The translations under genes were made by a program, and so were the position numbers. Below the pieces are notes generated by a model. The model was not told where the DNA came from and searched no databases. It saw only the letters and a program-made list of their open reading frames with translations. A stretch of 34,942 nucleotides of DNA from an uncultured Spirochaetia bacterium (GTDB lineage: Bacteria; Spirochaetota; UBA6919), in the NCBI GenBank assembly GCA_913053665.1, contig CAJXGR010000002.1:1-34942 (forward strand), given 5' to 3'. This document shows, one piece after another, positions 3,338 to 27,385 of the stretch (position 1 is the stretch's first letter; every line of letters begins with the position of its first letter).

Positions 3338-3523
3338 GTTCTAAAATAAGAATTGCTAATCTAACCTGGCGAAAAATAATATGGAAGCCATCAAAAGTCA
3401 AGTTGAGAATAGCCCTGGGAGCTTCCAACGGTCGTACAAGCCATTATTTTTTATTTAATGACCAAAATAAACTTCATTTTACTATATTATTATAAGACCT
3501 ACCAAGAACATAAGGACAATAGA

Positions 3524-4312
3524 ATGAAGTATAAAATATCTCTACTGATAATACTTGTCTCACTCATGGGATCAGCTCACGCCAAGAAAAAAATACTCGA
3601 TACAAAAAAGTTAAAAAGGGCGAAAATCTACAGAAGCCTGAAAGTTGCCCTCCAAAGGCCTCGTAAGGTTTACAAGCTTTATTTATATGGTCAGGACTTG
3701 AAAAGCCTATCTCCCGAGATCAAGAACCTCAAACGATTACAGATGCTTGACTTAACAGAAAACCGTCTCACAACACTCCCCAAGGAAGTAGCTAAACTCA
3801 AACGATTGCAGTGGTTAAACTTAACTGAAAATAAACTCACCGTTTTACCCAAACAGATCGGCAAACTCAAGAGATTAGAGTGGCTTGGCTTGTCAGAAAA
3901 CCGATTGACCACAGTACCCAAAGGAATCGGTAAACTCAAGAAATTAGAGAGTCTTAATCTCTCAGAAAATCGTATCACCCATCTCCCAAAAAAGATTGGG
4001 AAGCTTAAGAAGCTACTATGGCTTTCTTTATGGGATAATCAACTCACCCGTTTGCCCAAGAAGATTGGGAAGCTTAAAGGCCTAAACTGGCTGCATTTAG
4101 ATAAAAACGAGCTCACTAGAATCCCCAAAACGATAGGGAATCTTAAGAACTTAAAGCACCTTGGACTCTCTGAAAATCGGCTCACCAAGCTCCCCAAGGA
4201 GATCGGAAATCTTCAAAGCTTAAAGACCCTTAATTTATGGGGCAATAATTTCAGTGAAAAGGAAATGAAAAAGATCAGAAAGCTTTTGCCAAAGTGTGAT
4301 ATTAATTTTTAA
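3524..4312 (+). CDS. Secreted leucine-rich repeat (LRR) protein
   Basis: Start at the ATG at 3524 (AAGGA upstream). Signal peptide MKYKISLLIILVSLMGSAHA. About nine 23-residue repeats of the form LxxLPKxIGKLKxLxxLxLxxNxLT. Confidence 0.85.
   Translation: MKYKISLLIILVSLMGSAHAKKKILDTKKLKRAKIYRSLKVALQRPRKVYKLYLYGQDLKSLSPEIKNLKRLQMLDLTENRLTTLPKEVAKLKRLQWLNLTENKLTVLPKQIGKLKRLEWLGLSENRLTTVPKGIGKLKKLESLNLSENRITHLPKKIGKLKKLLWLSLWDNQLTRLPKKIGKLKGLNWLHLDKNELTRIPKTIGNLKNLKHLGLSENRLTKLPKEIGNLQSLKTLNLWGNNFSEKEMKKIRKLLPKCDINF
3674..4255 (+). repeat. 69-nt coding periodicity (LRR units) inside the LRR gene
   Basis: The string aaactcaa(g/a)(a/c)gattaga...ctc/tta...gaaaa(c/t)cg recurs every 69 nt, matching the 23-aa LRR units. 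Confidence 0.8.
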
Positions 4313-5186: not shown

Positions 5187-6251
5187 ATGAAGATATTAAT
5201 CACTGGTGGAGCCGGCTTTGTGGGGGCTTATCTTTGCAGGCTCTATAAAAGTAAATATCCCAATGGAAAGGTCGTGGCCTTCGATAACCTCCACCGAAGA
5301 GGGTCTGAGCTGAACATCCAAGAGTTTAGTAGGCTTGGCATTGACTTTGTTCATGGCGATATCCGTATCTATGAGGATCTATCTGTCCTGGAAGATCACT
5401 TTGATCTCTTTATCGAGGCTTCTGCTGAACCATCCGTATTAATGGGGTTAAACAAGCCCAATTTATACGCCCTACAAACCAATTTACAGGGTACCGTCAA
5501 CTGTTTGAACTTTGCCCTTCACCATGCGGACTGTTTTAACTTTTTATCCACCTCCCGTGTCTACTCCATTGATCCCCTAAAAAAAATCCCCCTAAAAGAG
5601 GGTGACACAAGGTTTTATATTGATGAATCTGGAGGATCGCTCTCTGGCTTATCTGAAAAGGGAATCAATGAAGACTTCCCCGTGAATACAGCCCGATCCA
5701 TTTATGGGGCCACCAAATTAGCCTCTGAGCTTCTTATTCAAGAATATGTCGATACTTATAACCTTAAAGCCATCATCAATCGCTGTGGGGTTTTATGCGG
5801 TGCGGGGCAGTTTGGCAAGGTGGAACAGGGTGTTTTCACTCTCTGGGTGGCTCGTCATTATCTTGAAAAGCCCTTAAAATACACAGGTTTCGGCGGTAAA
5901 GGCAAACAAGTGAGAGACTTACTCCACCCAAAAGACCTGTTTGAAGCCATCGAAATCCAGAGAGACCAGGTGAATCGCTGTTCTGGAGAGATTTACAATA
6001 TCGGGGGTGGGACAGATATCTCAGTGAGCCTGTTGGAATTAACGAAGCTATGTCAGGAAATAACAGGCAATAGCATTGAAATACAAGAAATCCCTGAAAC
6101 CACGGCAGTCGATATCCCCCTATACATCACCGATTACGGGAAAGCCCATCAAGGCTTTGGCTGGAAGCCTAATTTGGGCGTTCAAGATATAGTCTCCGAC
6201 ATTTATGAGTGGCTGACAAAGAACCATAGGACATTACAACAGATATTTTAG
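5187..6251 (+). CDS. NAD-dependent epimerase/dehydratase (extended SDR, CDP-paratose 2-epimerase-like)
   Basis: GGAGFVG Rossmann motif, STSRVY, YGATK catalytic Yxxx[16 protein letters not shown]. Confidence 0.85.
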
Positions 6252-6259
6252 AGGTCATT

Positions 6260-7327
6260 ATGAGTATTGCTATTATCACAGGGTCCGCAGGACTTATTGG
6301 AAGCGAATCCGTCCAGTACTTTCATGAGAAAGGCTTTGAGGTATGGGGTATTGACAACAATATGAGGAAGTATTTCTTTGGAGAAGACGGTTCCACGGAC
6401 TGGAAAAAGAAAGAACTCTCTCAACTTAAGAATTACAAACATTTTAGTATAGACATACGCGACACTGACGAGGTGAATCGCTTATTCAAAAAGGCAAAAA
6501 GCAATGTCAAACTTGTGATCCACTGTGCCGCACAACCCAGTCATGATTGGGCCGCTAAAGAACCCATCACGGATTTCACGATCAATGCCAACGGAACTTT
6601 GAACCTCTTGGAAGGGATGAGACAGGAATCTCCCGAATCAGTATTTATATTCACCAGTACCAATAAGGTATACGGGGATCTCCCCAATAGCCTGCCTCTC
6701 ATTGAGAAGGAGAGTCGTTGGGAGCTTGATCCCTCTCATCCCTTTGCAGAGCATGGAATTGACGAGACCATGTCCATCGACAACTCGAAGCATAGTGTAT
6801 TTGGAGCGTCCAAAGTGGCGGCTGATATCATGGTTCAGGAGTATGGTAAATACTTTAACCTCAAAACAGCCGTCTTCCGGGGAGGATGTCTAACCGGCCC
6901 AGCTCATAGTGGAGCAGAGCTTCACGGGTTTTTAGCCTATGTTGCAAAATGTGGAGTTTCAGGGCGAAAGTACACAATCTTTGGCTACAAGGGGAAGCAG
7001 GTGAGAGACAACATACACGCCCATGATCTAGTCGAGGCTTTCTGGCATTTTTATGAGAACCCACGTATGGGAGAGGCCTACAACATGGGTGGCTCCAGAC
7101 ACAGCAACTGTTCTGTCCTGGAGGCCATCCAGATGGTTCAAGACCTGACGGGTAAAGAGTATCACTACGAACTCTCTGATAAATCACGGATTGGAGACCA
7201 TATTTGGTGGATCAGTGATATTCGAAAGTTCAAAAGTCATTATCCAGATTGGTCTTATCGCTATGATATGCAGAGAATTATCGATGAGATTGTTGAGGCC
7301 ACAAAGGATAGAGTGAAAAGTCCATGA
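6260..7327 (+). CDS. NAD-dependent epimerase/dehydratase (extended SDR, CDP-paratose 2-epimerase-like)
   Basis: [41 protein letters not shown]. This is a paralogous family to the preceding gene. Confidence 0.85.
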
Positions 7328-8064
7328 AATTATCCTGTATCCTGCCGGCCCACAATGAAGAGGGTTGTATCGAATCAACTGTGAGACAGCTATCCAATGT
7401 TTTAAAGGAAGCTCAAATCGACCACGAGATCCGGGTGATCAATGACAATTCGACGGACCAGACGGGAATCCTGTTAAAAGAACTCTCTAGGGAAATTAAA
7501 GAGTTAGTCGTGATAGATAATGATCCCCCCAATGGCTTTGGATTTGCCGTCCGTAAGGGCCTGGAAAGCTTTGTGGGAGATGTGGTTTGCATAAATATGG
7601 CGGATGCCTCGGACAGCCCGGAGGATGTGGTCGCTTTTTATAATGAAATCAAGGTCAGCCAAAAGGATTGTGTCTTTGGAACCAGGTGGTCCAAGGGTGG
7701 AAAGGTGATTGACTATCCTTTTATCAAAAAACATGTGAATCGTTTAGCCAATCATTTCATCCGATTGCTGTTCAGAATTAAGTATAACGACATTACCAAT
7801 GCATTCAAGATGTATCGTGCCCATGTGATCCCTGGACTACAACCATTTCTAAGCCCTCATTTTAACCTGACGGTTGAACTACCCCTTAAAGCCATTGTGA
7901 GGGGCTACACCTATTCTGTTCTACCCAACTCCTGGACCAATAGAACATCGGGAGAGTCCAAACTGAAGATCAAGGAAATGGGTAGCCGATATTTATTTAT
8001 CGTCTTTTATTGCCTCATAGAGAAGTGGTTTTCTATGGGGGATTATAAAAAAAGCAGCCGTTAA
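7324..8064 (+). CDS. Family 2 glycosyltransferase (polyprenyl-phosphate sugar synthase-like, ArnC/DPM1-like)
   Basis: ATGA overlap with the upstream [14 protein letters not shown]...[10 protein letters not shown]...MADASD motifs and a single C-terminal hydrophobic helix. Confidence 0.85.
8014..8054 (+). repeat. Left copy of the duplicated GT2 3' end (41 nt)
   Basis: ctcatagagaagtggttttctatgggggattataaaaaaag matches 9002-9042 at 38 of 41 positions. Confidence 0.9.
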
Positions 8065-8119
8065 AATAGCCTTCCGTACAGATTAAGAATTACTTTTTAG
8101 TAGACTATATATAATTGAT

Positions 8120-8506
8120 TTATGCATTCATTAAGCTAGGTTCTAACTGATGGATTTGTTTTAGACAATCATCGATGGCTTGTTTTAGGGTTTCTTTATC
8201 AGTCAAATAATTAATATCCTCTAATTCCATTCCCTGGACAACGATATCTCTTAATTTTGTGTTTAATGCATGTTTGTCACAAAGTTCAAGGGTGCTCATA
8301 TTGAATATAAGTTGTTCAGCCTCTTGGATAGTCCTTTTTTTCTCCTTGATTTCGACCAGGATTGTTTCTGTCATTGTCGCTATAATCCTTTCCATTTCCT
8401 TTTTGTTGAGGAGAGAGAGAAACTGGCTTATGGGATACTTATCTTTTAATTTCAACATTAAAAACTTTTCCTGATCCATGTTCAAAGTAGTGGATTTCGG
8501 TTCCAT
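8120..8506 (-). CDS. Hypothetical protein (cassette gene 2; immunity/antitoxin-like is speculative)
   Basis: The ORF is open to a TTG at 8515. ATG candidates lie at 8506, 8479 and 8458, and only 8458 has an AGGAAA-type RBS. The protein is predicted helical and acidic. No family was recognised. Confidence 0.5.
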   Translation of the reverse strand: MEPKSTTLNMDQEKFLMLKLKDKYPISQFLSLLNKKEMERIIATMTETILVEIKEKKRTIQEAEQLIFNMSTLELCDKHALNTKLRDIVVQGMELEDINYLTDKETLKQAIDDCLKQIHQLEPSLMNA

Positions 8507-8792
8507 CCACTCCAAACCGGTAAATCTTGTTCCATTTTCCAGGGAGCTTTTTCCTAAGTTCTTTTAGCAAAGTTTTATTCTTCACATTTTCCTTAACGTA
8601 CTTTCCCTTACAAGGCTCCCAGCCCTCAGGAACTTTTCCTGATTCTTGGATCGAGTTAAATATTTCTTGAATATTGTTCATTTTAAAGATACCTTTTATG
8701 ATTTTTAAAATCAAGAAAAATATAACGTAAATAAAACTTAAAGACGTTTTTAGACTGTCCTTTTTTTTGCTTAAAGTTTTAATTAAAATCAT
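8439..8792 (-). CDS. Hypothetical small protein (cassette gene 1)
   Basis: An ATG at 8792 gives a hydrophobic N-terminal segment. An ATG at 8681 gives an 80-aa soluble form (MNNIQEIF...GVDGTEIHYFEHGSGKVFNVEIKR). No family was recognised. Confidence 0.45.
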   Translation of the reverse strand: MILIKTLSKKKDSLKTSLSFIYVIFFLILKIIKGIFKMNNIQEIFNSIQESGKVPEGWEPCKGKYVKENVKNKTLLKELRKKLPGKWNKIYRFGVDGTEIHYFEHGSGKVFNVEIKR

Positions 8793-8974
8793 CCGTTAAA
8801 GCTAACGGCTTTTATATACTTTCTATTTATTCTATCACAAGCTGAAGCTTTTTTTTAGTTATTTTTGCCTTGATTTCTTGAAAGTGCGCCTGAGTGAGAA
8901 AATTAGCACATCAATATACCCTCTATTTCCTGAACAAAACAGGTTTATCAATGGAAAATTAGCATCTTATAATG

Positions 8975-9058
8975 TATTTTTATGCATATTTATTGTACAG
9001 TCTCATCGAGAAATGGTTTTCTATGGGAGATTATAAAAAAAGAGGTTCTCACACATGA
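8975..9058 (+). pseudogene. Orphan remnant of a GT2 gene 3' end (...[23 protein letters not shown])
   Basis: In-frame translation mirrors the end of the intact GT2 ([19 protein letters not shown]). Its TGA at 9056-9058 overlaps an ATG (ATGA). Confidence 0.7.
9002..9042 (+). repeat. Right copy of the duplicated GT2 3' end (41 nt)
   Basis: ctcatcgagaaatggttttctatgggagattataaaaaaag. The three differences from 8014-8054 are all synonymous third-codon positions. Confidence 0.9.
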
Positions 9059-9089
9059 CAAGGCTTTTAAAGGTTCCAGGGGGCACTGA

Positions 9090-10616
9090 ATGAGTCACAA
9101 AAAGCTCTCTATTGTCTTTTATGCGTTCTCACTATTCTTTGTCATCCTACATCTGATCTATATCAATAGTTCTTGGGTCAATGCTGAACATTCTTTTGTA
9201 TCAGCGGCCAAGGCTCTCATCAATCCTGACTACACTCTAGGACTTGAGCAATACTGGAAAAACCAGGCCAATCCTCTGGGTCATCCCTTTGTGATGGCTA
9301 TATTTGCGTCTGTTTTTGGGATTTCTTCCTTTGCTTTTCGTTTACCCTCTCTGGTAGGTGCTCTCATCATCTTTTGGGTTGCTTATCATTTTTATTTAAA
9401 GAACCTTCTAAATAAAATCCATTGGACATATTTTATGGTATGGCTTTTCGTAACAGCTTTCAACCCAATGATCTGGGTATACAGTCATTCCGCAACCAAT
9501 GACATTTTGCCCGTTGGCCTAGTGGTCTTATCCTTTTACTTATGCTTTAAAGCCAGAAATAACTGGTACATCCACCTGATAGCCGGATTGATTTTTAGTA
9601 TAAGTTGTGTTATCAAATGGAATAGTATGCTTTTAGGCCTCGGATTTATCTACCTGTTGTTTTTCAATGACGAGGGCCGATTTGTTTGGAATCGGACAAA
9701 ACTTTATTACTCAGTAAGTTATACGCTTTTGCCATTAGCTCTTTTGGGGGTTTACTTTGCTTACATCTATACGAACTTCGGCATATTCATACTTCCTGAG
9801 AAATATAAAACAGTACACAGCTTTCATTTAAAAGGAGTCCTTTTAAACTTGTCCAACTATATCAGCTTTCTTGGCGTGATGCTTGGTTTCCTTGTAGTGA
9901 TTCCCGTTATATCCTATCTGAAAAAGGCTTCATCGAATAAAAAGATTTATTATACATTTACTATCACTGTTTTACTACTAGGCCTATTCTCATGGAATGT
10001 TTTCTACCACTTCAAGACCGGAGAGATGGACTTTGGCAGGTACTTTGACAGCCTCTTGGGGAAAGAAGGTATCGCTTTCATCAGGGTCACAGGGTTTATT
10101 CTATCTATTTATATTATTATATCCTTAGTGATAGAGGCTTATAAAAAGAAAAGTCGTCTGGCCTTCTTTATTTTAGTGACTGTAATACCCTTCATCATCA
10201 TTTCGTCTTTCACAAGACCTGCTCAGCGCTACCTATTATTCGTTTATCCCTTCGTTTCTTTTTATGTGATCCTCATATTAGGAAACCGCTTGCCCCGATT
10301 AACTAAATGGCTGGGTTGGTCAACAGCTTTTGTGTTCAGCGTATTAAGCTTTGTGAGTAGCTATTATCTGATTGAAACAGGATCAGCTGAGGAGCGGATG
10401 GCTCAATGGGCTTCCTCCAAGGGACTCATCAGTGAGACCAAGCAGGATTTTGGGGTGGGACATGCCGGACAGTACTTTTATAGAAACTTAAGGAGCCCAA
10501 AAAAGTATTTGATCTCAATAAGAGAACAGCCTCCAAAAGACTATCTACACAAAGAAGACGTCTATCTATTCGGTAAAAAGATAAGGTCCTACTATATATT
10601 TACTCTCCCTCGATAG
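9090..10616 (+). CDS. Polytopic membrane protein, GT-C fold glycosyltransferase-like (ArnT/PMT family 39/83-like)
   Basis: About 12-13 hydrophobic segments over 508 aa. A first loop after TM1 is followed by an NPLGHPF segment (compare the PPL motif of ArnT/PMT enzymes). Its genomic position directly after a GT2 is the ArnC/ArnT arrangement. Confidence 0.55.
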   Translation: MSHKKLSIVFYAFSLFFVILHLIYINSSWVNAEHSFVSAAKALINPDYTLGLEQYWKNQANPLGHPFVMAIFASVFGISSFAFRLPSLVGALIIFWVAYHFYLKNLLNKIHWTYFMVWLFVTAFNPMIWVYSHSATNDILPVGLVVLSFYLCFKARNNWYIHLIAGLIFSISCVIKWNSMLLGLGFIYLLFFNDEGRFVWNRTKLYYSVSYTLLPLALLGVYFAYIYTNFGIFILPEKYKTVHSFHLKGVLLNLSNYISFLGVMLGFLVVIPVISYLKKASSNKKIYYTFTITVLLLGLFSWNVFYHFKTGEMDFGRYFDSLLGKEGIAFIRVTGFILSIYIIISLVIEAYKKKSRLAFFILVTVIPFIIISSFTRPAQRYLLFVYPFVSFYVILILGNRLPRLTKWLGWSTAFVFSVLSFVSSYYLIETGSAEERMAQWASSKGLISETKQDFGVGHAGQYFYRNLRSPKKYLISIREQPPKDYLHKEDVYLFGKKIRSYYIFTLPR

Positions 10617-15344: not shown

Positions 15345-15851
15345 CTAGTAGCACCCCTCGTAGACCTCATATTTCCCTGAATTACCGGCCATATGAAGTA
15401 TCTTTTTAATCTTTTTTGAGTTAGCCAAATCTATAGGTGTTTTCCCGTCATTATTCCTGGAGTGGGGATCTGAGCCATGTTTTAATAGGAGTTTTACAAC
15501 TTTTATATATCCTTGTTTGGCTGGCCAATGCAATGGGGTCATACCCTTAAAGTTTTTGGCGTTCACATTGGCTCCATGGTCAATCAGGACCTTGCAAACT
15601 TCCAGATGATTGTAGGCGGCAGCGAAGTGTAGGGCTGTCATTTTACTACTATTTTTGGAATTGACATCCGCTCCCTTTGCCAATAGACTTTTCACTTCTT
15701 GCAATTTGTTCTTTGAGGCGGCATTACGCAGGGATTTGTTTATTTGAGGATTCCCCTTGGTATGGTCTGAGCATTGTACAGCTAAAATGCTGAGAGAAAT
15801 ACATACAGTAATCCACTGTATAAGCCTGCGTTTTTTATAGCGATGAATCAT
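15345..15851 (-). CDS. Ankyrin-repeat protein with N-terminal signal/anchor sequence
   Basis: Start at the ATG at 15851 (MIHRYKKRRLIQWITVCISLSILAV...). Three to four ANK units (TALHFAAAYNHLEVCKVLIDHGANVNAKN, MTPLHWPAKQGYIKVVKLLLKHGSDP). Confidence 0.8.
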   Translation of the reverse strand: MIHRYKKRRLIQWITVCISLSILAVQCSDHTKGNPQINKSLRNAASKNKLQEVKSLLAKGADVNSKNSSKMTALHFAAAYNHLEVCKVLIDHGANVNAKNFKGMTPLHWPAKQGYIKVVKLLLKHGSDPHSRNNDGKTPIDLANSKKIKKILHMAGNSGKYEVYEGCY

Positions 15852-15945
15852 CTTTCTTTGTCTCCTTTTGTATTGAAAGTTAATGGATTCAAGTAAATTA
15901 CGGTGATGTCCTACTAAACTTTTGTTTTGGTTTGTCACTACCAAT

Positions 15946-15987
15946 AAATATACTTATAATTCTTTTCTATCCCAAATTCTTTTTAGG
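15946..15987 (-). repeat. Copy 1 of a perfect 42-bp direct repeat with a promoter-like motif (upstream of the ankyrin gene)
   Basis: aaatatacttataattcttttctatcccaaattctttttagg. The minus strand reads TTGGGA-N17-TATATT. Confidence 0.9.
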
Positions 15988-16005
15988 CAATCATTAAACA
16001 AGACC

Positions 16006-16551
16006 TTAAATCAACTCAGAATAACGGACTGAAAGGTTTGGGAAAACTCTGGATTTCAACGGATCATCAGTCTTAACCAGGTTGTAAGAAACAAACTTTG
16101 ATTTTTCCAGGACAAAAACTTCTATACTCTTTTTCCGTGGGTCCACAAGCCAGTATTCCCTCACACCGAACTTCTCATAGGCTTTAAACTTGAGCCCTCG
16201 ATCCTTCTTTTCGGTTGACTTGGAAAGGATTTCAACAACCAGGTCGGGGGAACCAAATATCCCACGGTCCTGAATGATCTGTTTATTTTCCTTGGAGATA
16301 AAGACAATATCCGGTTGGAAGGTGTTATTTTCATCAAATATTACATCAATAGGAGAAGAAATCATCTGTCCAAGATTATTTTCTTTTAGAAAAACCCATA
16401 GCATACTAGACAGGTTTCCTATAATGATTTGATGTTCAGAACTAGGGGAAGACATTTCAATCAATTCTCCTTCGAGGACTTCGTAGCGTTTCTCATCATT
16501 TAGTCTGTAATATTCTTCATAAGTCCATTTCTTTTGTTTTGTTACAGCCAT
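16006..16551 (-). CDS. Uma2 family endonuclease (DUF820, PD-(D/E)xK-like)
   Basis: WTYEEYYRL...RYEVLEGELIEMSSPSSEHQ...PDIVFISKEN...PDLVVEILSKST...KFKAYEKFGVREYWLVDP is the characteristic Uma2 pattern. ATG at 16551 (GTG at 16560 in the ORF track). Confidence 0.85.
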   Translation of the reverse strand: MAVTKQKKWTYEEYYRLNDEKRYEVLEGELIEMSSPSSEHQIIIGNLSSMLWVFLKENNLGQMISSPIDVIFDENNTFQPDIVFISKENKQIIQDRGIFGSPDLVVEILSKSTEKKDRGLKFKAYEKFGVREYWLVDPRKKSIEVFVLEKSKFVSYNLVKTDDPLKSRVFPNLSVRYSELI

Positions 16552-16580
16552 AACGGTCACCGTCCCATGATCTATAAAGC

Positions 16581-16622
16581 AAATATACTTATAATTCTTT
16601 TCTATCCCAAATTCTTTTTAGG
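16581..16622 (-). repeat. Copy 2 of the perfect 42-bp direct repeat (upstream of the Uma2 gene)
   Basis: Identical to 15946-15987. The flanking bases differ on both sides. Confidence 0.9.
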
Positions 16623-16673
16623 GATAAACGATTTACTTCTTCCAAATTAGACGAACACCTTGTAACGGGATAT

Positions 16674-17876
16674 TTAACGAGATCTCTGATCCCGTGATTT
16701 CCTATGCCGCTGAATGGATTGAGCCACACTCAAGGCGGCTCCTACAGCGATAATAATGTTAATACCTCCCATCAAATAAGCAATGTTATACCGAATAGAT
16801 GCCCATTTCATAAGAAGATCAGGATATATCGCAGTGATTGCCAGAAGAATGGAGGCTGGAAGGGAAATCCGACCTAACACATTAGTAAGATAAACTCTTA
16901 TTGCCTCTCCAGACTTTATTCCAGGTATCATTCTCCCCTCTTTATCCAATAGATCAATGATAGCACGGGGATTATAATAGATAGTTTTATAGGTAAAATT
17001 GCTGATCAAAGTCATTAAAATTGTAAATACTATGAAATAAAAGATAGCCCCAGGGGATAACGCTCTAGCAATACCGATCAGGATGGGATTGTTAAGATTA
17101 AAGATATTGATAAGTTCTGATGGAATAAGAATAAACCAGGAAGCCAGAGAAATGATCAGTATGTCACTGATGGGATGGACTTTGAACGTGATCTTAGACT
17201 GTCCATCACTTTCTCCTACTGGAACATACCTGGCAGAGAGTTGTCTTCCAACTACTAGGCTGACTAGTAGGATAAATGCTAAAAGAATGATAATAGATTT
17301 TAATCGGCTCATATTACCATCATTCAACAGTTCTTTAAATTGAAGGAGTTCACCAGCGAATCCAGCAAAAAGCATAAGTAAAAAACCATTGCCCAAACCC
17401 CTTTTCGTGATCTGATCAGCCAGCCACACCAAAAACAGAGTCCCCGAAGTCATGATTAATATAAAAGTCAGGGTGAATAATATGTTTAAATCGTCTGGGT
17501 GAAAACCGTGTAAAGAACCCATTGGATCATTGATCATATAATTTCTAAAGAGTATCAACGATCCAATAGACTGAATGACACAAATGATAATCGTTCCATA
17601 TCGAAGATAACGATCCATACTGAGATCGTTAAGAACAGAACGTTTGCGTAAGGATGGAATCAGCATTTTTAAGAACCAGAGAACAGCATAAGCACTAATA
17701 TATGGCCAAATACCTAATGAGAAGAGGGAAAACCTGTCAATAAATGATTCAAATACCCCCCATTGGTCAGTATACATTAATATTGCCGGATCAATGCCGG
17801 GTAAAGGAATCCAGATGCCTATACGATAAATAACTAATGCAAACAAAGTAAAAAGAATACGTTTCGCCAGATCCAT
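16674..17876 (-). CDS. Divergent SecY-family protein-conducting channel paralog (400 aa, 10 TM)
   Basis: AAGGAG RBS. SecY-like blocks run along the entire length: KRILFTLFALVIYRIGIWIPLPGID, FSLGIWPYISA, RYGTIIICVIQSIG, LVWLADQITKRGLGNGFLLMLFAG, YNPRAIIDLLDKEGRMIPGIKSGEAIRVYL. Ten hydrophobic segments. There are no flanking rplO, adk, map or infA genes. Confidence 0.8.
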   Translation of the reverse strand: MDLAKRILFTLFALVIYRIGIWIPLPGIDPAILMYTDQWGVFESFIDRFSLFSLGIWPYISAYAVLWFLKMLIPSLRKRSVLNDLSMDRYLRYGTIIICVIQSIGSLILFRNYMINDPMGSLHGFHPDDLNILFTLTFILIMTSGTLFLVWLADQITKRGLGNGFLLMLFAGFAGELLQFKELLNDGNMSRLKSIIILLAFILLVSLVVGRQLSARYVPVGESDGQSKITFKVHPISDILIISLASWFILIPSELINIFNLNNPILIGIARALSPGAIFYFIVFTILMTLISNFTYKTIYYNPRAIIDLLDKEGRMIPGIKSGEAIRVYLTNVLGRISLPASILLAITAIYPDLLMKWASIRYNIAYLMGGINIIIAVGAALSVAQSIQRHRKSRDQRSR

Positions 17877-17886
17877 TCTACACTCC

Positions 17887-18870
17887 TTACAACCACTTCT
17901 CCCGCTGATACCACTCTAAAGTCTCCCGAAAACCCTCTAACAAGTTGTAACGGGGTATCCAGTCTAGTTCTTCACAAATACGGCTTGAGTCACACAGCCA
18001 GGCGTCCTGGAGCATTTCCTTGACCTTCTGTGAGTTGAGGAGAGCCGGCTTCTTAGTGAGCCTGGAGACCCTGTCATTGATCCAGCCTAAGGTTTTAGGG
18101 ATCACAATGGGTAGCTTGACGGTGAGAGCCTTTTTCTGATAAACCTCACTGGCTGTTTGGGTAATGTCAGGCCAGCCATAGATATGGCCGTCCGTGACAA
18201 AATACGTCCTGCCGGATGGAGGCTTTTTTTCGATCACCCTAATGATACTCTCCACAAAGTCATGGACATGGATCATGTTGACTTTCATCGTTCCACTCCC
18301 GATGAGAAGACTCAAGTGATACTTCAACAGTTTAAAGAGCGGGTAGAACTCATGATCCCGTGGGCCGTAAATAGAACAGGGTCTTAAGAGGGTGACGGGA
18401 AAGTCATCCTGATATTGAAGGACTTCTTTTTCAGCTTCCAGTTTGGTGATGCCGTAATCCGTGATGGGGTGACAGGGGGAATCTTCAGTGAGAGGGATAA
18501 AGTCATGGGAAGAACCGACCGCGGCTTGACTAGAAACAAAGATAAAGCGATTGAGTGAACTGTTTCCCTTTGCCTCTCGCAATAAAGAGGAGGTCGGGAG
18601 GACGTTCCCTTTGTGGTAGTCATGATAGTTTAAGGCTTTAGTGACACCGGCACAGTGGACAAGGACATCCACCCCCTGAACCAGCTTACTCACGCTGTAG
18701 GAGTCTTCCCAGTCCACTAATCGGGTCTCAATAGCAGATGAGTCCAGCCACTTGGAAGAACTCTGTCGACGCAGGCTAACGATCACCTCATAGCCTTTCT
18801 GGATAAGCCTTTCAACGAGGTGGCTTCCTACAAAGCCTGTGGCTCCGGTCACTAATACCTTTGGCTTCAT
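17887..18870 (-). CDS. NAD(P)-dependent epimerase/dehydratase family SDR
   Basis: VTGATGFVGSHL, SSQAAVG, YGITKLEAE (YxxxK). 327 aa. Confidence 0.85.
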   Translation of the reverse strand: MKPKVLVTGATGFVGSHLVERLIQKGYEVIVSLRRQSSSKWLDSSAIETRLVDWEDSYSVSKLVQGVDVLVHCAGVTKALNYHDYHKGNVLPTSSLLREAKGNSSLNRFIFVSSQAAVGSSHDFIPLTEDSPCHPITDYGITKLEAEKEVLQYQDDFPVTLLRPCSIYGPRDHEFYPLFKLLKYHLSLLIGSGTMKVNMIHVHDFVESIIRVIEKKPPSGRTYFVTDGHIYGWPDITQTASEVYQKKALTVKLPIVIPKTLGWINDRVSRLTKKPALLNSQKVKEMLQDAWLCDSSRICEELDWIPRYNLLEGFRETLEWYQREKWL

Positions 18871-18886
18871 AGGATTGCTATAAACT

Positions 18887-20215
18887 TTAGAAGCTCAATA
18901 ACTTATGAGCCTGTAGCAATGAGGGCTTGATGTCCACTCCAAAGGGACACACATGTCTGCAAGGCTCAGAGCAGGTTGCACAATAGACAGCCTGATTTTT
19001 CTTTTCCAGAAGGACTTTATAGGAAAGTATGGCTTTCTTTTCCATACCAAAGTTCTCATACTGAGCGCGATAACGTAAAATATCAGGAATCGCTACATTG
19101 AAGATGCAGACAGGGAGGCACACGTCACAAGCTCGGCAGTAGGAGTGTCCCCATTGTTCTGACACGGCTTTCTGATAGGAGCTTAAAACACTGGTATTGC
19201 CTGAACCACCCTTTGCGGCTCCCGCATATCGTTCCAATTCGCTGAAGTTCCGTATAGGGGCTCTCACACTACTAATCTTATCGTTTTCAAGGATCCAGCT
19301 GATGGACGCTTCCCGAAAGCCTTTATCCAAATCTCGTTTGGTTACGTCAAATCCCCCGGCAAAGGGTTCCGAAGCAATGATCCCAATGTTTTTTTCTTTC
19401 GCTTTATCAAACAAATCGGAGTATTGAAAGAATCGGGACTCATAGCGATCGTTCTGTCTGACGTAGTTGTAGTATAGCATGAGGACGTCAAACTTGCCCC
19501 CGTCAATGGCTTTCTTCACCACTTCCTTCATGTCCCCGTTATAACTGGTCAGGCCAAGATGTTTCACCATTCCCTTTTCTTTAGCCTTCTCAAAGGCTGA
19601 GTGGAGCATAGGGTTTGTGACCCGATGGATTCCTCCCACCCCGTGTATGTAGAGAATATCCACATAATCCGTCTGAAGTCGTTTGAGACTCTTCTCGATG
19701 GAGGCCAGCATCTTCTCTTCCGTCCCTCCATAGGTCGGATCTTCGTCCTCAATGGGTAACTTGGTGGATATGATGAGGTTTTCCCGAGAACTTTTGTTCT
19801 TTTTCAGGTACTCACCAATCAGTTCTTCACTTTGACCCGCATAATACTTGGGTGCTGTATCGATACAGTTGATACCCATGTCAATCGCGGCCTCAAGGAC
19901 TTTCTTGTCGGTGATCAGGTGAGCACCAAAGGTCAGGGCAGATATTTCACCCACCTTCCCCAATTTTCTGGGGGCCAAGCCTGCTGATGAGCTTTCATCA
20001 TTACTCGAATCGTCGTCGTCATCACCCTCATCATCATCATCGTCACCTTCGTCATCCTGGGCTCTTAGGGTATTAGCCGCTATAAAGGGCAGGATGCCGC
20101 CAATCGTTGCGAGGGACGCTTTCTTGATAAAGTCCCTTCGGGGCAGTTCTTTTTTAGTTAATTCCTCTTCCAAATTGCTTTTTTTATCTTCGTTTTGTAC
20201 TTTTCCCTCTTCCAT
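18887..20215 (-). CDS. Tat-signal aldo/keto reductase with a C-terminal Cys-rich 4Fe-4S-type domain
   Basis: AGGAGG RBS. Twin-arginine motif PRRDFIKKASLATIGG, a poly-acidic linker, an AKR core (CIDTAPKYYAGQSEELIGEYL, YVDILYIHG), and C-terminal CRACDVCLPVC ... CATCSEPCRHVCP. Confidence 0.8.
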   Translation of the reverse strand: MEEGKVQNEDKKSNLEEELTKKELPRRDFIKKASLATIGGILPFIAANTLRAQDDEGDDDDDEGDDDDDSSNDESSSAGLAPRKLGKVGEISALTFGAHLITDKKVLEAAIDMGINCIDTAPKYYAGQSEELIGEYLKKNKSSRENLIISTKLPIEDEDPTYGGTEEKMLASIEKSLKRLQTDYVDILYIHGVGGIHRVTNPMLHSAFEKAKEKGMVKHLGLTSYNGDMKEVVKKAIDGGKFDVLMLYYNYVRQNDRYESRFFQYSDLFDKAKEKNIGIIASEPFAGGFDVTKRDLDKGFREASISWILENDKISSVRAPIRNFSELERYAGAAKGGSGNTSVLSSYQKAVSEQWGHSYCRACDVCLPVCIFNVAIPDILRYRAQYENFGMEKKAILSYKVLLEKKNQAVYCATCSEPCRHVCPFGVDIKPSLLQAHKLLSF

Positions 20216-20284
20216 TATGGGAATCCTCCTGTTTTATCATCATGATAGGGGTTTTAAAAAATAAGTTCACCTTCCATCTTCACT

Positions 20285-22021
20285 CTAATAATGAATATAA
20301 AATGGCATCAAAGTGGCCACTCTTTCCTTTGAAAAGATCCTCTGAATGTACTTCAGGTAAATAATGAGTGGTTTCGCAAAGATTTGCATGCTTTCAATTT
20401 CTCTCTCTAGCTGTTGTTTCATAAAGAGATTAGAACTTAATAATTCCATAAAGCTCTTCTGTTCAGGATAGGTGACAATCTCCAGCTTATTATTAAAGTC
20501 TCGTACTTTTTTACGTGCCAAGCGGATAGCAAAGTCGATCCCACCTAATTGATCCACCAGACCAACCTTCAGGGCTTGAGTGCCGGTGTAGATCTTGCCC
20601 TGGGCGTGGACGTTCATTTTCTTGATCGTCATCTTTCGCCCTTGAGCGGCTTTTCGGACAAAAGTTTTATAGGTTTCAAGCATTTGCTTGGCGATCAATT
20701 TGTTTTCTTCAGGCGTAAAATTGCGATAATCCGTGAATAGGTCGGCGTATTTGCCTCTTTTGAAGATTTCTTTATTGAGCCCAACCTTGTTATAGAGGCC
20801 CTTTAAGTTGAACTTCCCTCCAACAACACCAATGGAGCCTGTGATAGTGGTCGAATTAGCAATAATAGTGGGACAAGCCATAGCAATATAATACCCTCCC
20901 GAGGCCGCCACATCCGAAAGACTGGCAATCACAGGTTTAGCCTGACTCAATAGACGCACCTCTCGCCAAAGTATGTCTGAAGCAAGGGCAGATCCTCCAG
21001 GGCTATTAATCCTTATGACAACAGCCTTTACCTTGGGATCTTTTCTCACCTGCCTTAAGATAGCTGTAAAGTCATCGCTTCCAATGGCATTGCTCCCACC
21101 GAAAAGGCTTCTTTTGCTTTTCCCTGATATAATCGTCCCTTCCATATAGATAATAGCAATCTTGGGGGCGTTACTCTTTTTAGGAGGCTTCTTGTAGAGC
21201 ATCATGAGGAGTTCCATACTACTGGGTTTTCTGGCTCGACCGGATCTCTTGTTGTTTTGGTAACTGGCAAGAACCCCTCCATTTTTTTGGACTATCTCCT
21301 CAAACTTGTCCTCATAGAGGAATCCGTCTATCAATTTGGCTTTCTTAGCCTCTGCAGCACTGAAAAAACCACGATCCACAAGTTTTAAGACCCTCCCTTT
21401 AGAGATTTTCCTACCCTCAGCAATAATACTCACAAACTCATCAAATAACCCATCTAATAGGAAGTTAATGGACTCCTTCTGGTATTTGGAGGCCCTGGAA
21501 CGAGTGTATATTTCACTGGCTGATTTATAATTACCCATTTGGTGGAAGTTGGGAGAGACTCCCAGCATATTAAAGGTATTTTTGAGAAAGACAAGCTCCA
21601 AGGCAATTCCACTTAGATCCACTCCCCCTTGAGGGGATACATAAAGGCGATTGGCAACAGAGGCTAATAGATAGTCTGTTTTGGAGAAGGTTTCGCTAAA
21701 GGCGTATATAGTTTTACCTTGATTCTTAAAGGCCTTCAAAGCCTCCCTTAGCTCTTGAAGCTTAGCCAGACCCAGTCGAGGGGATTTAATTTTAAGGACA
21801 ATACCTTTGACCGACGCGTCTCTTTTGGCTCTGTTGATAATGGTTAAGAGGGCCCTTAGGCTGTTGTTTTTTGCACCCATAAAGCTAGAGACACGGATGT
21901 CGTCTTGAATGAGGCCTTCAACGGTGATGGGAAGGAACTTCGCATTATTGGCCCTTAAAAAGCTGGACAAAAGGGTTAATGAAAGAATGAAAGACATGAG
22001 GAACAATTTCTTATAGATCAC
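20285..22021 (-). CDS. sppA: Signal peptide peptidase SppA, 67K two-domain type (S49)
   Basis: Signal/anchor peptide and two S49 halves, with INSPGGSALASD and DVAASGGYYIAMA motifs in the second half. 578 aa. GTG start with an AGGA RBS. Confidence 0.85.
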   Translation of the reverse strand: MIYKKLFLMSFILSLTLLSSFLRANNAKFLPITVEGLIQDDIRVSSFMGAKNNSLRALLTIINRAKRDASVKGIVLKIKSPRLGLAKLQELREALKAFKNQGKTIYAFSETFSKTDYLLASVANRLYVSPQGGVDLSGIALELVFLKNTFNMLGVSPNFHQMGNYKSASEIYTRSRASKYQKESINFLLDGLFDEFVSIIAEGRKISKGRVLKLVDRGFFSAAEAKKAKLIDGFLYEDKFEEIVQKNGGVLASYQNNKRSGRARKPSSMELLMMLYKKPPKKSNAPKIAIIYMEGTIISGKSKRSLFGGSNAIGSDDFTAILRQVRKDPKVKAVVIRINSPGGSALASDILWREVRLLSQAKPVIASLSDVAASGGYYIAMACPTIIANSTTITGSIGVVGGKFNLKGLYNKVGLNKEIFKRGKYADLFTDYRNFTPEENKLIAKQMLETYKTFVRKAAQGRKMTIKKMNVHAQGKIYTGTQALKVGLVDQLGGIDFAIRLARKKVRDFNNKLEIVTYPEQKSFMELLSSNLFMKQQLEREIESMQIFAKPLIIYLKYIQRIFSKERVATLMPFYIHY

Positions 22022-22250
22022 TGAGCCATCCTATACGTAGACTTTCAAGAAGATGTAAATTACCAGCATTAAGAATGTATTATGAAAGGTAAAGAATGTC
22101 AAGCACATATCCTTGATTTTAAGTTAAAATAGACAGAAATCCACCCAAGGTCAAGTGAAAATAACGAAAAAAATAAATGAACGTTTCACCCCAAATGATT
22201 CTAACCCAGTAATATTGGAATGAACATAAATGCCCACTGATTCAAAGACC

Positions 22251-22520
22251 TCAAAAATAGGCAACAGAACAGGGATTCCGTGTTAAAAGCCAAGCTCTTT
22301 GCTCATAATTGCGTTGTTTTTTAAGCCAATTTGCATGAAACTCTGTTTGATTATTCAAAACATCAATACTATAAATACCTGTAGACTCAATACAGAAGTG
22401 GACTTCACTAATATTATATTTCCTGGCCTGTCTATTCGTCCATTTTTCAAGGGCTAAAAAACTCTTAACGATGATTAAGGTTGACAGGATCCGTGGGTTT
22501 TTATTATACTTATGTATCAT
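22251..22520 (-). pseudogene. Possible relic of an IS110-family transposase N-terminal domain
   Basis: FLALEKWTNRQARKYNISEVHFCIESTGIYSIDV resembles the IS110 DEDD-domain stretch (...l..wl......v.v.mEaTG.Y...l). The first GIDVSK-type motif and the entire C-terminal domain are missing. Confidence 0.3.
22481..22510 (+). promoter_or_regulatory. Sigma70-type promoter candidate for aroC
   Basis: TTGACA (22481-22486), an 18-nt spacer, and TATACT (22505-22510). The -10 element ends 36 nt before the aroC ATG. Confidence 0.4.
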
Positions 22521-24780: not shown

Positions 24781-24840
24781 TGTAGGGGATGACCCACGTG
24801 TCATCCCTGTAAAAGGGTAAACACGCGGGTTCACCCCTAC
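24781..24840. repeat. REP-like GC-rich element: two inverted GTAG-headed hairpin units
   Basis: Unit A is GTAGGGGATGACCCACGTGTCATCCCT. Unit B, on the opposite strand, is GTAGGGGTGAACCCGCGTGTTTACCCT. Each folds into an 8-bp stem. The element lies between convergent genes, and its terminal CTA supplies the TAG stop of the 24837 minus-strand gene. Confidence 0.55.
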
Positions 24841-27269
24841 TTTACTATAATGGGGAAAGATATTGTTTTCCCATCACCATATTGAATGATCACTGTCCAC
24901 TTACCACCCATGTCAAGATTAACTTTTCCTTTATAAATCCCTACTTCGCTTGTTGGAGTAATCGTTGCACGATCTGTCATTTCCGGCATAGTGGGAGGCA
25001 TTGCAGGCATATAGAAATTGAGTTTAACGTTTTTCCCTCCGTCAAATGGCTTTCCGTTGTTTTTAAAAGTGAGAGCAAACTCGTTTTTCCCTTTTTGGAA
25101 ATAATCGTTATCTTTCGTGCTGTAGACTGAAACAGTGATTAGATCCTGCGAATGTCGATGTATTAAAGTCCCACTGAATGTCCTTGTTTTAATAGCCTCT
25201 TTTGGAGTACTACTCTCTGTAGCAGGCTTTTCCTTTACTCGCATGGGCTCAACAGGCACTGCTTCTTTTTTTGACATCATCATGTCATCAGAAGCGAATA
25301 ACCAGTAGCCCATACCAAAAAACATGCCTCCAGCCAGAGGAGTTATGAAATTACTCACACCCACACCACTTGTTGATACGGATTCACTGGTGACACCCCT
25401 TTTGGTGAGTCGCAGGACGCTTAAGCTTGTTCCCATCTTACCACTGATTTCTTTATAGAGTGGGATCAATGTGTTGAAGTGGAAATTACCGTGAAGCCTT
25501 TCATACTGCCTAGTCCTTAAACTCGCTAAGCCAAGCTCATAGAAGTAACCGAGTTGATTCATTATATAGGAGTTGTCCACCCAGAGGTAAGATAAGACAT
25601 TGTAGGACAGCTTTCTAAGGGCCATTCTATGGTAGAATCGAGGGTATCGGCTGCGGGAGGCTTGAATCACTTTTCTCATATTCTTTTCGCTGAAGCAGAC
25701 CACTAACTGACGGCCAAAGTAGGTCCAGTAAACCGATATGGGGGATTTTCGCAGGTCTCTGAATCGTATAATCACCTTATGGACTGTGTGATTCAAGAGA
25801 GTTAGTCGGGTAAAGGGGGTTATGTGGCTGTCTGGCAGGCGTCTGATAAGAAGTCGCCACTGATCCTCTGCTCTGAATCGTTCTTTGACTGATACACTGA
25901 ACATCACTCTTTTCAGGAGACTTAAGCCAACAGTATCTTCCAAACGCCGAAAGGATGTGATCAGCTCTTCCGTATCGCTTTGTTCACCATTGATGGCAAC
26001 CATAACTTTACCCGAGAAAACTCCCATCAGTTCGTTTAGATCGATCCCTATTTCCCGTTTTACCTTCTTCAAGTCACGTATGTAAGATCGGTATTCTCGC
26101 TTCCCCCCAAGTTTATAGACCTGATCACCGATCCAGCTAAAGATATCAGGGAGTTCCTTAAAGGAAAGGCTCCACACGAGTCGGGTATCCTTGGGAAGCC
26201 ACCTGAAATCCCTTTTAGTGAGTCCTAAAGGTGTGATCTTCTGAAAGATAGACCTATACCTCGGGTCATAGGCCAATTCTATCTTTTCATGGTAGACACC
26301 CTTCTCAAAGGATTCTCCCGTAAGGAAGGACTCAACAGAGAAAAAACGATAGAACTTATCCACTTCAGAAGAGTCACGCGAAGGCCTTTGAAACCAGTCC
26401 GACTTATGGATCAGATTCTTAATGGAGACGTATAAACCGAAATAGGCTCCTTTTCCTAACTTATGGATCACTCTCTTTTTACGAAAGTGATAGTCCAACG
26501 TATCCCTTGCAGACGACGCTATACGATCCTTATATCGTTCAAAAGCTTTCTCACTAAAGGTGATGATATAATACTTTTTCCCATGTCTTTCCATTTTATG
26601 GATAGAAACACTCACCCCAAAACCTAACGGAATGACCCATCCATCACGGGAATCTGTAACATCACGAGAATGTCTGTCGTCACGGGATTCTCTACTGTCC
26701 TCAGAAGATTTTGAACTTTTCCTTGGTATATCCAAGAATGATTTGAAACCTGTGATCAGCTTTTCAATAGTTGGCTCTACGTCAATTGTTGGGTAGTAGG
26801 TGATGAGCAAGTTATCCAGTGCTATTTTATTGTCATCGCTGGTTAGAGCGACTTCAAGCTTTGCCTTTGTGAGAGTATAAATCTCCTGGGCGCTAAGATC
26901 TAAATAGCGTTTGAGAGAAGTTTGTATCTCCTCAAGAGGCCTTTCGTCGGGTAGGAAGGTATTTAGCATTTTAGCTAAAGGTATCTGAGACAGCTTTTTA
27001 CCCAATGGCTGGATCATGTAGTTTTGCGTGGCTATATCCAGACGATTGATAAAGCCGTAAAAATAGGTTTCTTTGGGCAGGCCGCGAACAAGGCTAGGTT
27101 GGAAGTACGACTGATTGAACTGTCTAATCTCCTTTCCCTTAGGGATTAAATCAGCCGGTACAGGCCCCAAAACCCCCTGACCCATGAAAAATAGGGATAA
27201 GAACACGATTTTCATCTTGCCGGGTAGAAGTAGAAGTAACTCAGTAAAACCATAAAATGCCATATCCAT
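24837..27269 (-). CDS. Large secreted/membrane-associated protein of unknown function with a FixH/YtkA-like C-terminal beta-sandwich domain
   Basis: The ATG at 27269 has a GAGGA RBS (alternatives: TTG at 27326, ATG at 27215). N-terminal hydrophobic signal. A Ser/Arg/Asp-rich low-complexity loop (SSKSSEDSRESRDDRHSRDVTDSRD). A predicted TM near residue 660. A C-terminal region (...FALTFKNNGKPFDGGKNVKLNFYMPAMP...GIYKGKVNLDMGGKWTVII) resembling YtkA/FixH domains. Confidence 0.6.
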   Translation of the reverse strand: MDMAFYGFTELLLLLPGKMKIVFLSLFFMGQGVLGPVPADLIPKGKEIRQFNQSYFQPSLVRGLPKETYFYGFINRLDIATQNYMIQPLGKKLSQIPLAKMLNTFLPDERPLEEIQTSLKRYLDLSAQEIYTLTKAKLEVALTSDDNKIALDNLLITYYPTIDVEPTIEKLITGFKSFLDIPRKSSKSSEDSRESRDDRHSRDVTDSRDGWVIPLGFGVSVSIHKMERHGKKYYIITFSEKAFERYKDRIASSARDTLDYHFRKKRVIHKLGKGAYFGLYVSIKNLIHKSDWFQRPSRDSSEVDKFYRFFSVESFLTGESFEKGVYHEKIELAYDPRYRSIFQKITPLGLTKRDFRWLPKDTRLVWSLSFKELPDIFSWIGDQVYKLGGKREYRSYIRDLKKVKREIGIDLNELMGVFSGKVMVAINGEQSDTEELITSFRRLEDTVGLSLLKRVMFSVSVKERFRAEDQWRLLIRRLPDSHITPFTRLTLLNHTVHKVIIRFRDLRKSPISVYWTYFGRQLVVCFSEKNMRKVIQASRSRYPRFYHRMALRKLSYNVLSYLWVDNSYIMNQLGYFYELGLASLRTRQYERLHGNFHFNTLIPLYKEISGKMGTSLSVLRLTKRGVTSESVSTSGVGVSNFITPLAGGMFFGMGYWLFASDDMMMSKKEAVPVEPMRVKEKPATESSTPKEAIKTRTFSGTLIHRHSQDLITVSVYSTKDNDYFQKGKNEFALTFKNNGKPFDGGKNVKLNFYMPAMPPTMPEMTDRATITPTSEVGIYKGKVNLDMGGKWTVIIQYGDGKTISFPIIVK

Positions 27270-27385
27270 ACCATCCTCATTAAGTCTATGATGATTTAAT
27301 TTACTTAAATTAAGTGTATTAGGCAATATATTAAAGATTTTCCTGAAGGTTTCAGTGACTTATGGTAAATTGTTTGATAGGCGGT

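Follow-up and report, generated by a model that had tools for sequence, protein, structure and literature searches.

To our knowledge, second SecY channels are textbook matter only for some Gram-positive bacteria, where SecY2 goes with SecA2, and for plastids. The plastid protein, SCY2, is the second SecY of chloroplasts and works with SECA2. In the usual SecY, SecA and the ribosome dock at the C4 and C5 loops and at the residue R357, and the plug closes the channel at rest. As for the signal peptide peptidase gene sppA, it is co-transcribed in Bacillus subtilis with a downstream membrane-protein gene, yteJ. We analysed a stretch of 34,942 nt (35 kb; "the window", in whose numbering all positions are given), contig CAJXGR010000002.1 of assembly GCA_913053665.1 from an uncultured Spirochaetia bacterium, in which an sppA gene is followed on the minus strand by the genes of an aldo/keto reductase (AKR), of a short-chain dehydrogenase/reductase (SDR) and of a SecY-like protein. 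The last of these is a true paralog of SecY which derives from the secY of its own lineage and has lost many of the most conserved positions of the family. This is an unusual extra SecY outside the Gram-positive bacteria; nothing shows that the four genes form a joint export module, as had been proposed in an initial annotation made from the letters of the window. That annotation knew of no such module in diderm bacteria; in the literature searched, a second SecY is described only for Gram-positive bacteria and plastids, and none was found for diderms or spirochaetes.

The four open reading frames (ORFs) form one block, with intergenic gaps of 69, 16 and 10 nt. This arrangement had been reported correctly by the initial annotation, and its identification of the four products also holds under profile and motif checks. 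The block and its upstream region consist of the following features.

16674..17876, minus strand: SecY paralog ("SecY2-like"), 400 aa (PF00344, AlphaFold2 model, motifs, omega, phylogeny)
17887..18870, minus strand: extended SDR, predicted cytoplasmic, NAD-dependent epimerase / 3-beta-HSD-like, 327 aa (PF01370)
18887..20215, minus strand: AKR with a twin-arginine translocation (Tat) signal, an acidic linker and a C-terminal 2x[4Fe-4S]-type Cys domain, 442 aa (PF00248)
20285..22021, minus strand: sppA, 67K-type signal peptide peptidase with an N-terminal membrane anchor, 578 aa (TIGR00705)
22022..22185, minus strand: conserved region 5' of sppA, likely operon promoter (promoter scan; identity to the related locus L001)

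The SecY-like protein matches PF00344 with 165.6 bits (gathering score 32.2) from residue 50 to residue 383, which covers the profile positions 1-304 out of 306, and its phmmer matches to SecY chains of the PDB run from end to end. With 183.3 bits it stays below the cutoff (253.6) of the housekeeping equivalog TIGR00967, which the housekeeping SecYs of the lineage, P0005 and P0241, pass with 390.7 and 386.5 bits. It fails the accessory SecY2 models as well (TIGR02920, 77.6 bits vs 249.6; NF009082, 85.8 vs 353), on which Staphylococcus SecY2 controls reach 350-509 bits. Its gene lies outside the spc ribosomal-protein operon, between the SDR gene and a Uma2 gene. The metagenome-assembled genome (MAG) GCA_054033435.1 has both an ortholog of the paralog, at the locus L001, and a SecY of 460 aa, P0005 (locus L005), whose gene closes the S10-spc-alpha ribosomal-protein operon and which is the closest match outside the paralog clade (37% identity); in a related organism the housekeeping SecY P0241 likewise belongs to the ribosomal-protein operon. 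The initial annotation was therefore right in calling the gene a SecY paralog, the confirmation being indirect, through this sister MAG.

In neighbour-joining trees the paralog clade is the sister of the housekeeping SecY of the lineage, with bootstraps of 96/100, and of 199/200 when P0241 is added. Hence, the paralog arose by duplication inside the lineage; it was not transferred from the SecY2 of Firmicutes, with which it shows no common descent in these trees. The canonical SecYs nearest to the clade are those of Spirochaetota/Leptospirales; P0005 is only about 50% identical to them, which means that the lineage is a deep one. The GC content of the paralog (0.38, and 0.35 at third codon positions) could hint at horizontal acquisition, which we rejected: the value of the housekeeping secY at third positions is similar (0.38), and the phylogeny pairs both genes.

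We then aligned the paralog clade with 117 canonical SecYs including the SecY of E. coli (reference sequence identical to 5abb_A). Out of the 92 SecY columns which are conserved at 90% or more, 41 are lost in the clade. In the plug, F67, G69, G70 and A71 (the GGA motif) are lost together with a deletion of about 10 residues. The C4 hairpin has a 13-residue deletion, and its tip has turned from basic to acidic by the loss of Y248, K250, R251 and R255/256. At the start of transmembrane segment (TM) 7, P266, N270 and G273-P276 (the NxxGVIP motif) are gone. The C5 loop has lost G351, R357 and P358, the residue at R357 being K, N, S or A in the four members; the column of G351 holds Gly in the canonical consensus and Ala in E. 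coli. Residues of the C2 loop are also found among the near-invariant losses, as are T404, S405, D415 and Q419 of TM10, and the C-terminal tail has been lost too. The pore ring remains hydrophobic (I, I, F/V, L, I, I/V). Within the clade, conservation is best in TM1, TM2b, TM4, TM5 and TM10 (pairwise identity 0.79-0.86) and poorest in the plug, the P2 and P3 loops and the tail.

The AlphaFold2 model of the paralog (pLDDT 85.3, pTM 0.84) has the SecY fold with ten TMs and is of low confidence only at residues 39-55, that is, in the plug region. All the top Foldseek matches of this model are SecYs, with TM-scores of up to 0.85; for SecY in complexes with SecA they are 0.82-0.85. One can notice that the model fits SecA-engaged, open SecY (0.82-0.85) better than resting SecYEG (0.69-0.73); this is a weak hint, taken from a single predicted conformation, which is consistent with a weakened plug. 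As C4, C5, R357 and the plug are all degenerate, it is unlikely that the paralog is coupled to SecA or to the ribosome, or gated, in the canonical way. The extra translocon of the initial annotation is thus real in so far as there is an extra SecY; it is not simply an extra translocon, because the motifs docking SecA and the ribosome have been lost.

The paralog also differs from its neighbours by its rate of evolution. The comparison of the window with L001 gave the following amino-acid identities and ratios of non-synonymous to synonymous rates (omega).

SppA: identity 95%, omega 0.057
AKR: identity 91%, omega 0.077
SDR: identity 91%, omega 0.083
Uma2: identity 84%, omega 0.17
SecY paralog: identity 66%, omega 0.28-0.31

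The synonymous distances (dS) are comparable across these genes (0.41-0.67), which means that non-synonymous change is 5-9 times faster in the paralog than in the three genes upstream of it. At the nucleotide level the paralog is 0.74 identical between both loci, for 0.85-0.91 in the surrounding features; since the low identity is confined to this gene, the acceleration is gene-specific. Overall, the omega of the paralog is about 0.23-0.31, and it stays below 0.5 in every region: over four genomes we obtained 0.19 for the TMs of the N-terminal half, 0.33 for those of the C-terminal half, 0.40 for the periplasmic loops and a noisy 0.13 for the cytoplasmic loops. Diversifying selection on the exposed loops was rejected, omega exceeding 1 in no region. 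The ORF is intact in all four genomes (391-402 aa) despite a dS of about 0.6-0.8, and its start codon, its Shine-Dalgarno sequence and its N-terminus are conserved. Judged by these ratios, selection on the paralog is strongly relaxed and still purifying.

These figures can be read in two ways. The SecY copy may be a young, dispensable duplicate which drifts to loss, the residual constraint acting only against a toxic protein, misfolded or leaky. This is our main rival explanation, and it would account for a non-synonymous rate 5-9 times that of the neighbours, for the loss of 41 of 92 invariant positions, with the normally essential R357 differing in every member, for the extremely narrow distribution described below, and for the position of the gene, which borders on a variable region whose Uma2 cassettes can be amplified. 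Against it count the intact ORF in four genomes out of four at such synonymous distances, an omega below 0.5 in each region (0.23-0.31 overall), and the conserved start codon, Shine-Dalgarno sequence and N-terminus. The pore ring and the core TMs are selectively conserved, the SecY fold is confidently predicted, and the functional SecY2 of Gram-positive bacteria has similar losses. For these reasons we hold decay to be unlikely on the whole.

The distribution of the paralog is narrow indeed. A word-indexed search of a set of 5.8 billion proteins returned a tight clade with four members (391-402 aa; identity 63-100%), after which the identity drops to 37%. No further member was found in the GTDB species representatives or in the JGI metagenomes, nor by an exhaustive profile search among 1.84 billion representatives, where the clade makes up one cluster at 50% identity. 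The remaining matches of these searches were canonical SecYs (at most 34% identity) or Staphylococcus SecY2 taken up by chance patterns.

The initial annotation had proposed conserved gene order as the test of its module, in which SecY would export a cargo, SppA would clear the signal peptides, and the AKR and the SDR would modify the cargo or a lipid carrier. Part of what we found speaks for such a module. The genes are tightly packed and co-directional, and a consensus scan agrees with the initial annotation that no minus-strand terminator-like hairpin lies inside the four-gene block. In all four genomes, the AKR gene, the SDR gene or both are found directly upstream of the paralog, the gap between SDR and SecY genes being 10-18 nt. 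Homology between the window and L001 extends over 6.3 kb (15985-22264): it begins 243 nt before sppA, includes Uma2 to its end and stops abruptly past 22264 on the sppA side, the flanks on either side being unrelated; this block from sppA to Uma2 is hence the unit of homology between both loci. An IS110-like transposase remnant at this upstream breakpoint (an ORF of 89 aa, 22251-22520) was considered and dropped, as it has no Pfam match. Moreover, SppA and the AKR with its Tat signal both face the periplasm, the topology of SppA being textbook knowledge of E. coli SppA.

In the more distant relatives, this test goes half against the module. At the loci L105 and L106 the order sppA-AKR-SDR is kept (SppA 58-60%, AKR 56-66% and SDR 49-52% identical; gaps of 94/5 and 77/9 nt, respectively), and no SecY-like or Uma2 gene was found within 10 kb of these three genes. 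This means that the trio is independent of the extra translocon. Further arguments go in the same direction: the SecY copy changes at 5-9 times the rate of its supposed partners, whereas the parts of one machine would be expected to co-evolve; neither SecA2, nor SecE or SecG, nor a cargo gene is conserved nearby, the downstream ankyrin gene being non-syntenic; at the locus L003 the SDR gene is apparently disrupted while the paralog is intact; and the AKR, as a predicted Tat substrate, does not need a Sec channel. Of the module there remain the genuine extra SecY and the AKR and/or SDR neighbours upstream of it in the four genomes; the dependence of the trio on SecY does not stand, and a dedicated four-gene export or envelope module appears decidedly unlikely. 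As far as gene order goes, the conserved unit is the trio sppA-AKR-SDR, restricted to a family; SecY and Uma2 were added to its 3' end in a single lineage, and the link between sppA and SecY is, on the same grounds, recent and limited to one genus-level clade. We also looked for a wider pairing of AKR with SDR or of sppA with AKR and rejected it: AKR homologues at 31-34% identity have neither an sppA nor an SDR neighbour.

Two sigma-70-like promoter matches lie 5' of sppA, TTGACC-17-TATTTT (22154-22126) and TTGACA-17-TACATT (22102-22074). Over the approximately 160 nt 5' of sppA the window and L001 agree to about 96%, against 88-91% in the adjacent coding DNA, and this higher conservation supports a promoter there. 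A Shine-Dalgarno sequence, GGAG, is found 6 nt before the ATG of the SecY-like gene. The four genes, the paralog included, are probably co-transcribed, as the initial annotation held. Scans of the window with Rfam and for tRNAs gave no match.

We consider it probable, though only somewhat so, that the locus is a composite one: an older sppA-AKR-SDR operon and a recent SecY duplicate with Uma2, the duplicate serving as an accessory SecY with altered gating. The anatomy of the locus, the paralogy, origin and rate of the SecY copy, the depth of the synteny and the lost motifs are shown by the data; co-transcription, the pairing with SecE and SecG and the role as an accessory channel are inferred. 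The sequence of events could be the following. The genes of SppA, of the Tat-exported Fe-S AKR and of the extended SDR would form a family-level operon of an uncultivated, Leptospirales-like group of spirochaetes, driven from the conserved promoter region 5' of sppA. Within a single lineage of genus level, a copy of its own housekeeping secY, with a Uma2 cassette behind it, would have joined the 3' end of this operon, the paralog being most likely expressed by read-through with the help of its own Shine-Dalgarno sequence. The paralog would pair with the housekeeping SecE and SecG into an accessory channel whose weak plug would alter its gating, and which, not being coupled canonically to SecA or to the ribosome, would have a narrow clientele. 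Such a channel would be parallel to the SecY2 of Gram-positive bacteria, with convergent losses in C4 and at R357, an independent origin and no linked SecA2. The duplicate is most likely an accessory SecY whose gating and motor coupling are altered, which we hold with moderate confidence. A stronger version of this reading, a SecA2-less accessory translocon of a diderm in which a weak-plug SecY that docks neither SecA nor the ribosome has another driving or docking partner and expression from the sppA operon couples the export of particular envelope proteins to the clearing of their signal peptides, seems to us quite unlikely.

Several points weigh against the composite reading. The R357 which is different in each member and the 41 vanished invariant positions could equally mean decay rather than specialisation. 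Neighbour-joining trees cannot date the duplication with respect to the relatives devoid of the gene, so that loss there and gain here are not separated. Co-transcription is inferred from gene spacing only. Neither a linked SecA2, nor a paralog of SecE or SecG, nor a candidate substrate was found in the window and in the related loci. The evidence of conservation comes from only four closely related MAG sequences. Finally, the operon linkage at L003 may be dispensable or already broken, because the SDR gene is apparently truncated there by an unrelated, weakly IS1-like sequence.

The contig end at L003 (GCA_054033495.1, positions 1-330) is as follows: the homology to SDR starts only at about residue 192, and the 320 nt upstream of it, up to the end of the contig, are an unrelated fragment with a weak similarity to an IS1 transposase (E 0.069, below the cutoff). 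The SDR gene may have been truncated by an insertion sequence beside an intact SecY paralog, or this may be an assembly artefact.

SppA passes TIGR00705 (SppA_67K) with 365.2 bits for a cutoff of 311.45 and has two PF01343 stretches; its alignment to E. coli SppA (3bez/3bf0) shows that the Ser-Lys catalytic dyad is kept, with the Ser in AASGGY and the Lys in YKSA. The AKR matches PF00248 with 137.7 bits and keeps the D/Y/K/H catalytic tetrad in its alignment to IolS. Its Fer4 matches are weak and below gathering scores; the Cys motifs CxxCxxCxxxC and CxxCxxxCxxxCP can be read in its translation. It bears the twin-arginine motif PRRDFIKK, and as RRxF[IL] is kept in nearly all homologues of the AKR-FeS family, Tat export is probably a trait of this family. 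We predict a periplasmic protein of the COG1453-like, Tat-exported Fe-S type. Since NAD(P)H is not expected in the periplasm, its electrons may pass through the Fe-S clusters. Between its Tat signal and its barrel lies, at residues ~53-77, a strongly acidic linker of low complexity (DDEGDDDDDEGDDDDDSSNDESSS), which is lineage-specific and varies in length among close homologues (proteins of 441-482 aa). The SDR matches PF01370 with 136.8 bits (Epimerase/3Beta_HSD) and has the motifs GATGFVG and YGITK; its best NCBIfam matches (HpnA, LegB, OleD, SdmB) are each far below their cutoffs. A pathway shared by SppA, AKR and SDR is not evident from these parts.

Downstream of the paralog, the window continues with the Uma2 and ankyrin genes which the initial annotation had placed there.

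16581..16622: 42-bp direct repeat, copy upstream of Uma2 (sequence; in L001 and L003 each Uma2 unit likewise has the repeat on its flanks)
16006..16560, minus strand: Uma2-family (PD-(D/E)XK nuclease-like) gene (PF05685, PADLOC, synteny)
15946..15987: 42-bp direct repeat, copy downstream of Uma2; ends the block common to L001 (homology stops at 15985)
15345-15944, minus strand: gene of an ankyrin-repeat protein, downstream of Uma2 (domain search)

The Uma2 protein matches PF05685 with 132 bits and PADLOC PDC-S03, a phage-defence candidate, with an E-value of 3e-46. Its gene is bracketed by the perfect 42-bp direct repeat, which carries a promoter-like TTGGGA-17-TATATT, and the unit of about 740 bp is tandemly triplicated in L001 (11232-13348). 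It looks like an amplifiable cassette, and the Uma2 family is a candidate for phage defence by a single gene. Wherever the sequence downstream of the paralog is known, which is so in three genomes, Uma2 comes next.

This neighbourhood suggests that the SecY copy and Uma2 could be a variable island of defence or competition, the paralog being a membrane decoy or variant target for phage or toxins that exploit SecY, or a membrane effector. The match to PDC-S03, the adjacency of both genes in three genomes, the cassette bounded by repeats and found three-fold in L001, and a fast evolution which is typical of conflict genes would fit. SecY is moreover a known entry route of some toxins of contact-dependent inhibition (PMC7858069). 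On the other hand, the paralog has no PADLOC match; omega exceeds 1 nowhere, the periplasmic loops reaching only 0.40; a decoy gives no protection while the housekeeping SecY is present; and Uma2 genes are usually stand-alone and multi-copy. We regard a defence island as very improbable.

A partner of the paralog was sought in its surroundings. No gene for SecA2, SecE, SecG or Asp was found in the window or at the related loci, nor one for YidC in the window; linked genes for glycosyltransferases or a serine-rich-repeat substrate were likewise absent from the window and, like secA2 and asp1-3 (asp4/5), from the flanks of L001, L003 and L108. The ankyrin protein, in which the initial annotation saw a possible cargo, had to be abandoned, as its gene is absent beside the paralog in L001 and L003. 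The start of this ORF is probably an internal ATG (MIHRYKKRRL...), and the protein has a stretch, LSILAVQC, that resembles a signal peptide or a lipobox; the ORF is immediately preceded by the second copy of the 42-bp repeat, and the ankyrin repeats match PADLOC PDC-M72A generically. A glycosylation cluster of the window was rejected as a linked partner too: it is 6-11 kb away from the paralog and not syntenic in the relatives. This cluster (5187-10616, plus strand) encodes two NAD-dependent epimerases/dehydratases, a GT2 glycosyltransferase and a PMT_2/ArnT-like membrane glycosyltransferase, and looks like a locus of lipid or glycan modification. Elsewhere in the window, one can notice a protein of 829 aa (24837-27326, minus strand) in which nothing but a YtkA-like domain at the C-terminus can be recognised, and a leucine-rich-repeat protein of 284 aa (3458-4312, plus strand); a leucine-rich-repeat protein is also found near the trio in L106.

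In this spirochaete-like diderm, a recent and independent duplication of SecY lets one follow, as in a natural experiment, how a universally essential channel diverges once a backup exists. Its value is limited, as the clade is tiny, uncultivated and represented by MAGs only, with no substrate in sight. An active channel would show that no dedicated SecA2 is required for an accessory translocon to arise.

When compared to the housekeeping SecY (TIGR00967), the paralog has the same full-length fold of ten TMs, an end-to-end match to PF00344 and a hydrophobic pore ring; it keeps the motifs GIxPYI, GNG, NP...PGI and, in TM10, GG, and it derives from the secY of the lineage itself. It differs by being about 45-60 aa shorter, by lying outside the ribosomal-protein operon, by evolving several-fold faster than its neighbours, and by lacking the GGA of the plug, the basic C4 tip, N270-GVIP, R357/P358, T404/S405/D415 and the C-terminal tail. 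The sppA-yteJ pair of B. subtilis resembles the operon of the window in that sppA is transcribed there with a membrane-protein gene downstream. The partner in that case is a small regulator of SppA of the RDD family and not a SecY, whereas in the window two oxidoreductase genes stand in between, and the link between sppA and SecY is absent in relatives. Like the paralog, plastid SCY2 is a divergent second SecY which originated as a duplicate, and the membrane system that holds it goes back to a diderm. It is encoded in the nucleus of a eukaryote and has a dedicated SECA2; we liken it by description, not by sequence.

The SecY2 of Gram-positive bacteria (SecA2-SecY2-Asp1-5-Gtf) is not related to the paralog by origin, the latter being independent and found in a diderm host, without linked genes for SecA2, Asp or glycosyltransferases and without a serine-rich-repeat substrate. 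The Staphylococcus SecY2 also retains the GG motif of the plug, which the spirochaete paralog has lost. In both cases, however, a second, highly divergent SecY stands beside a housekeeping copy, and the score on the canonical SecY model is depressed (118-146 bits for Staphylococcus SecY2). In the Staphylococcus SecY2, as verified by NCBIfam, one finds a convergent deletion of the C4 loop, and R357, T404/S405 and D415 are replaced. As this protein, which uses a dedicated SecA2, shows such similar losses, those of the paralog are compatible with a working accessory channel. The losses common to both, in the C4 loop and at R357, point to the parts of SecY which are the first to be freed from constraint.

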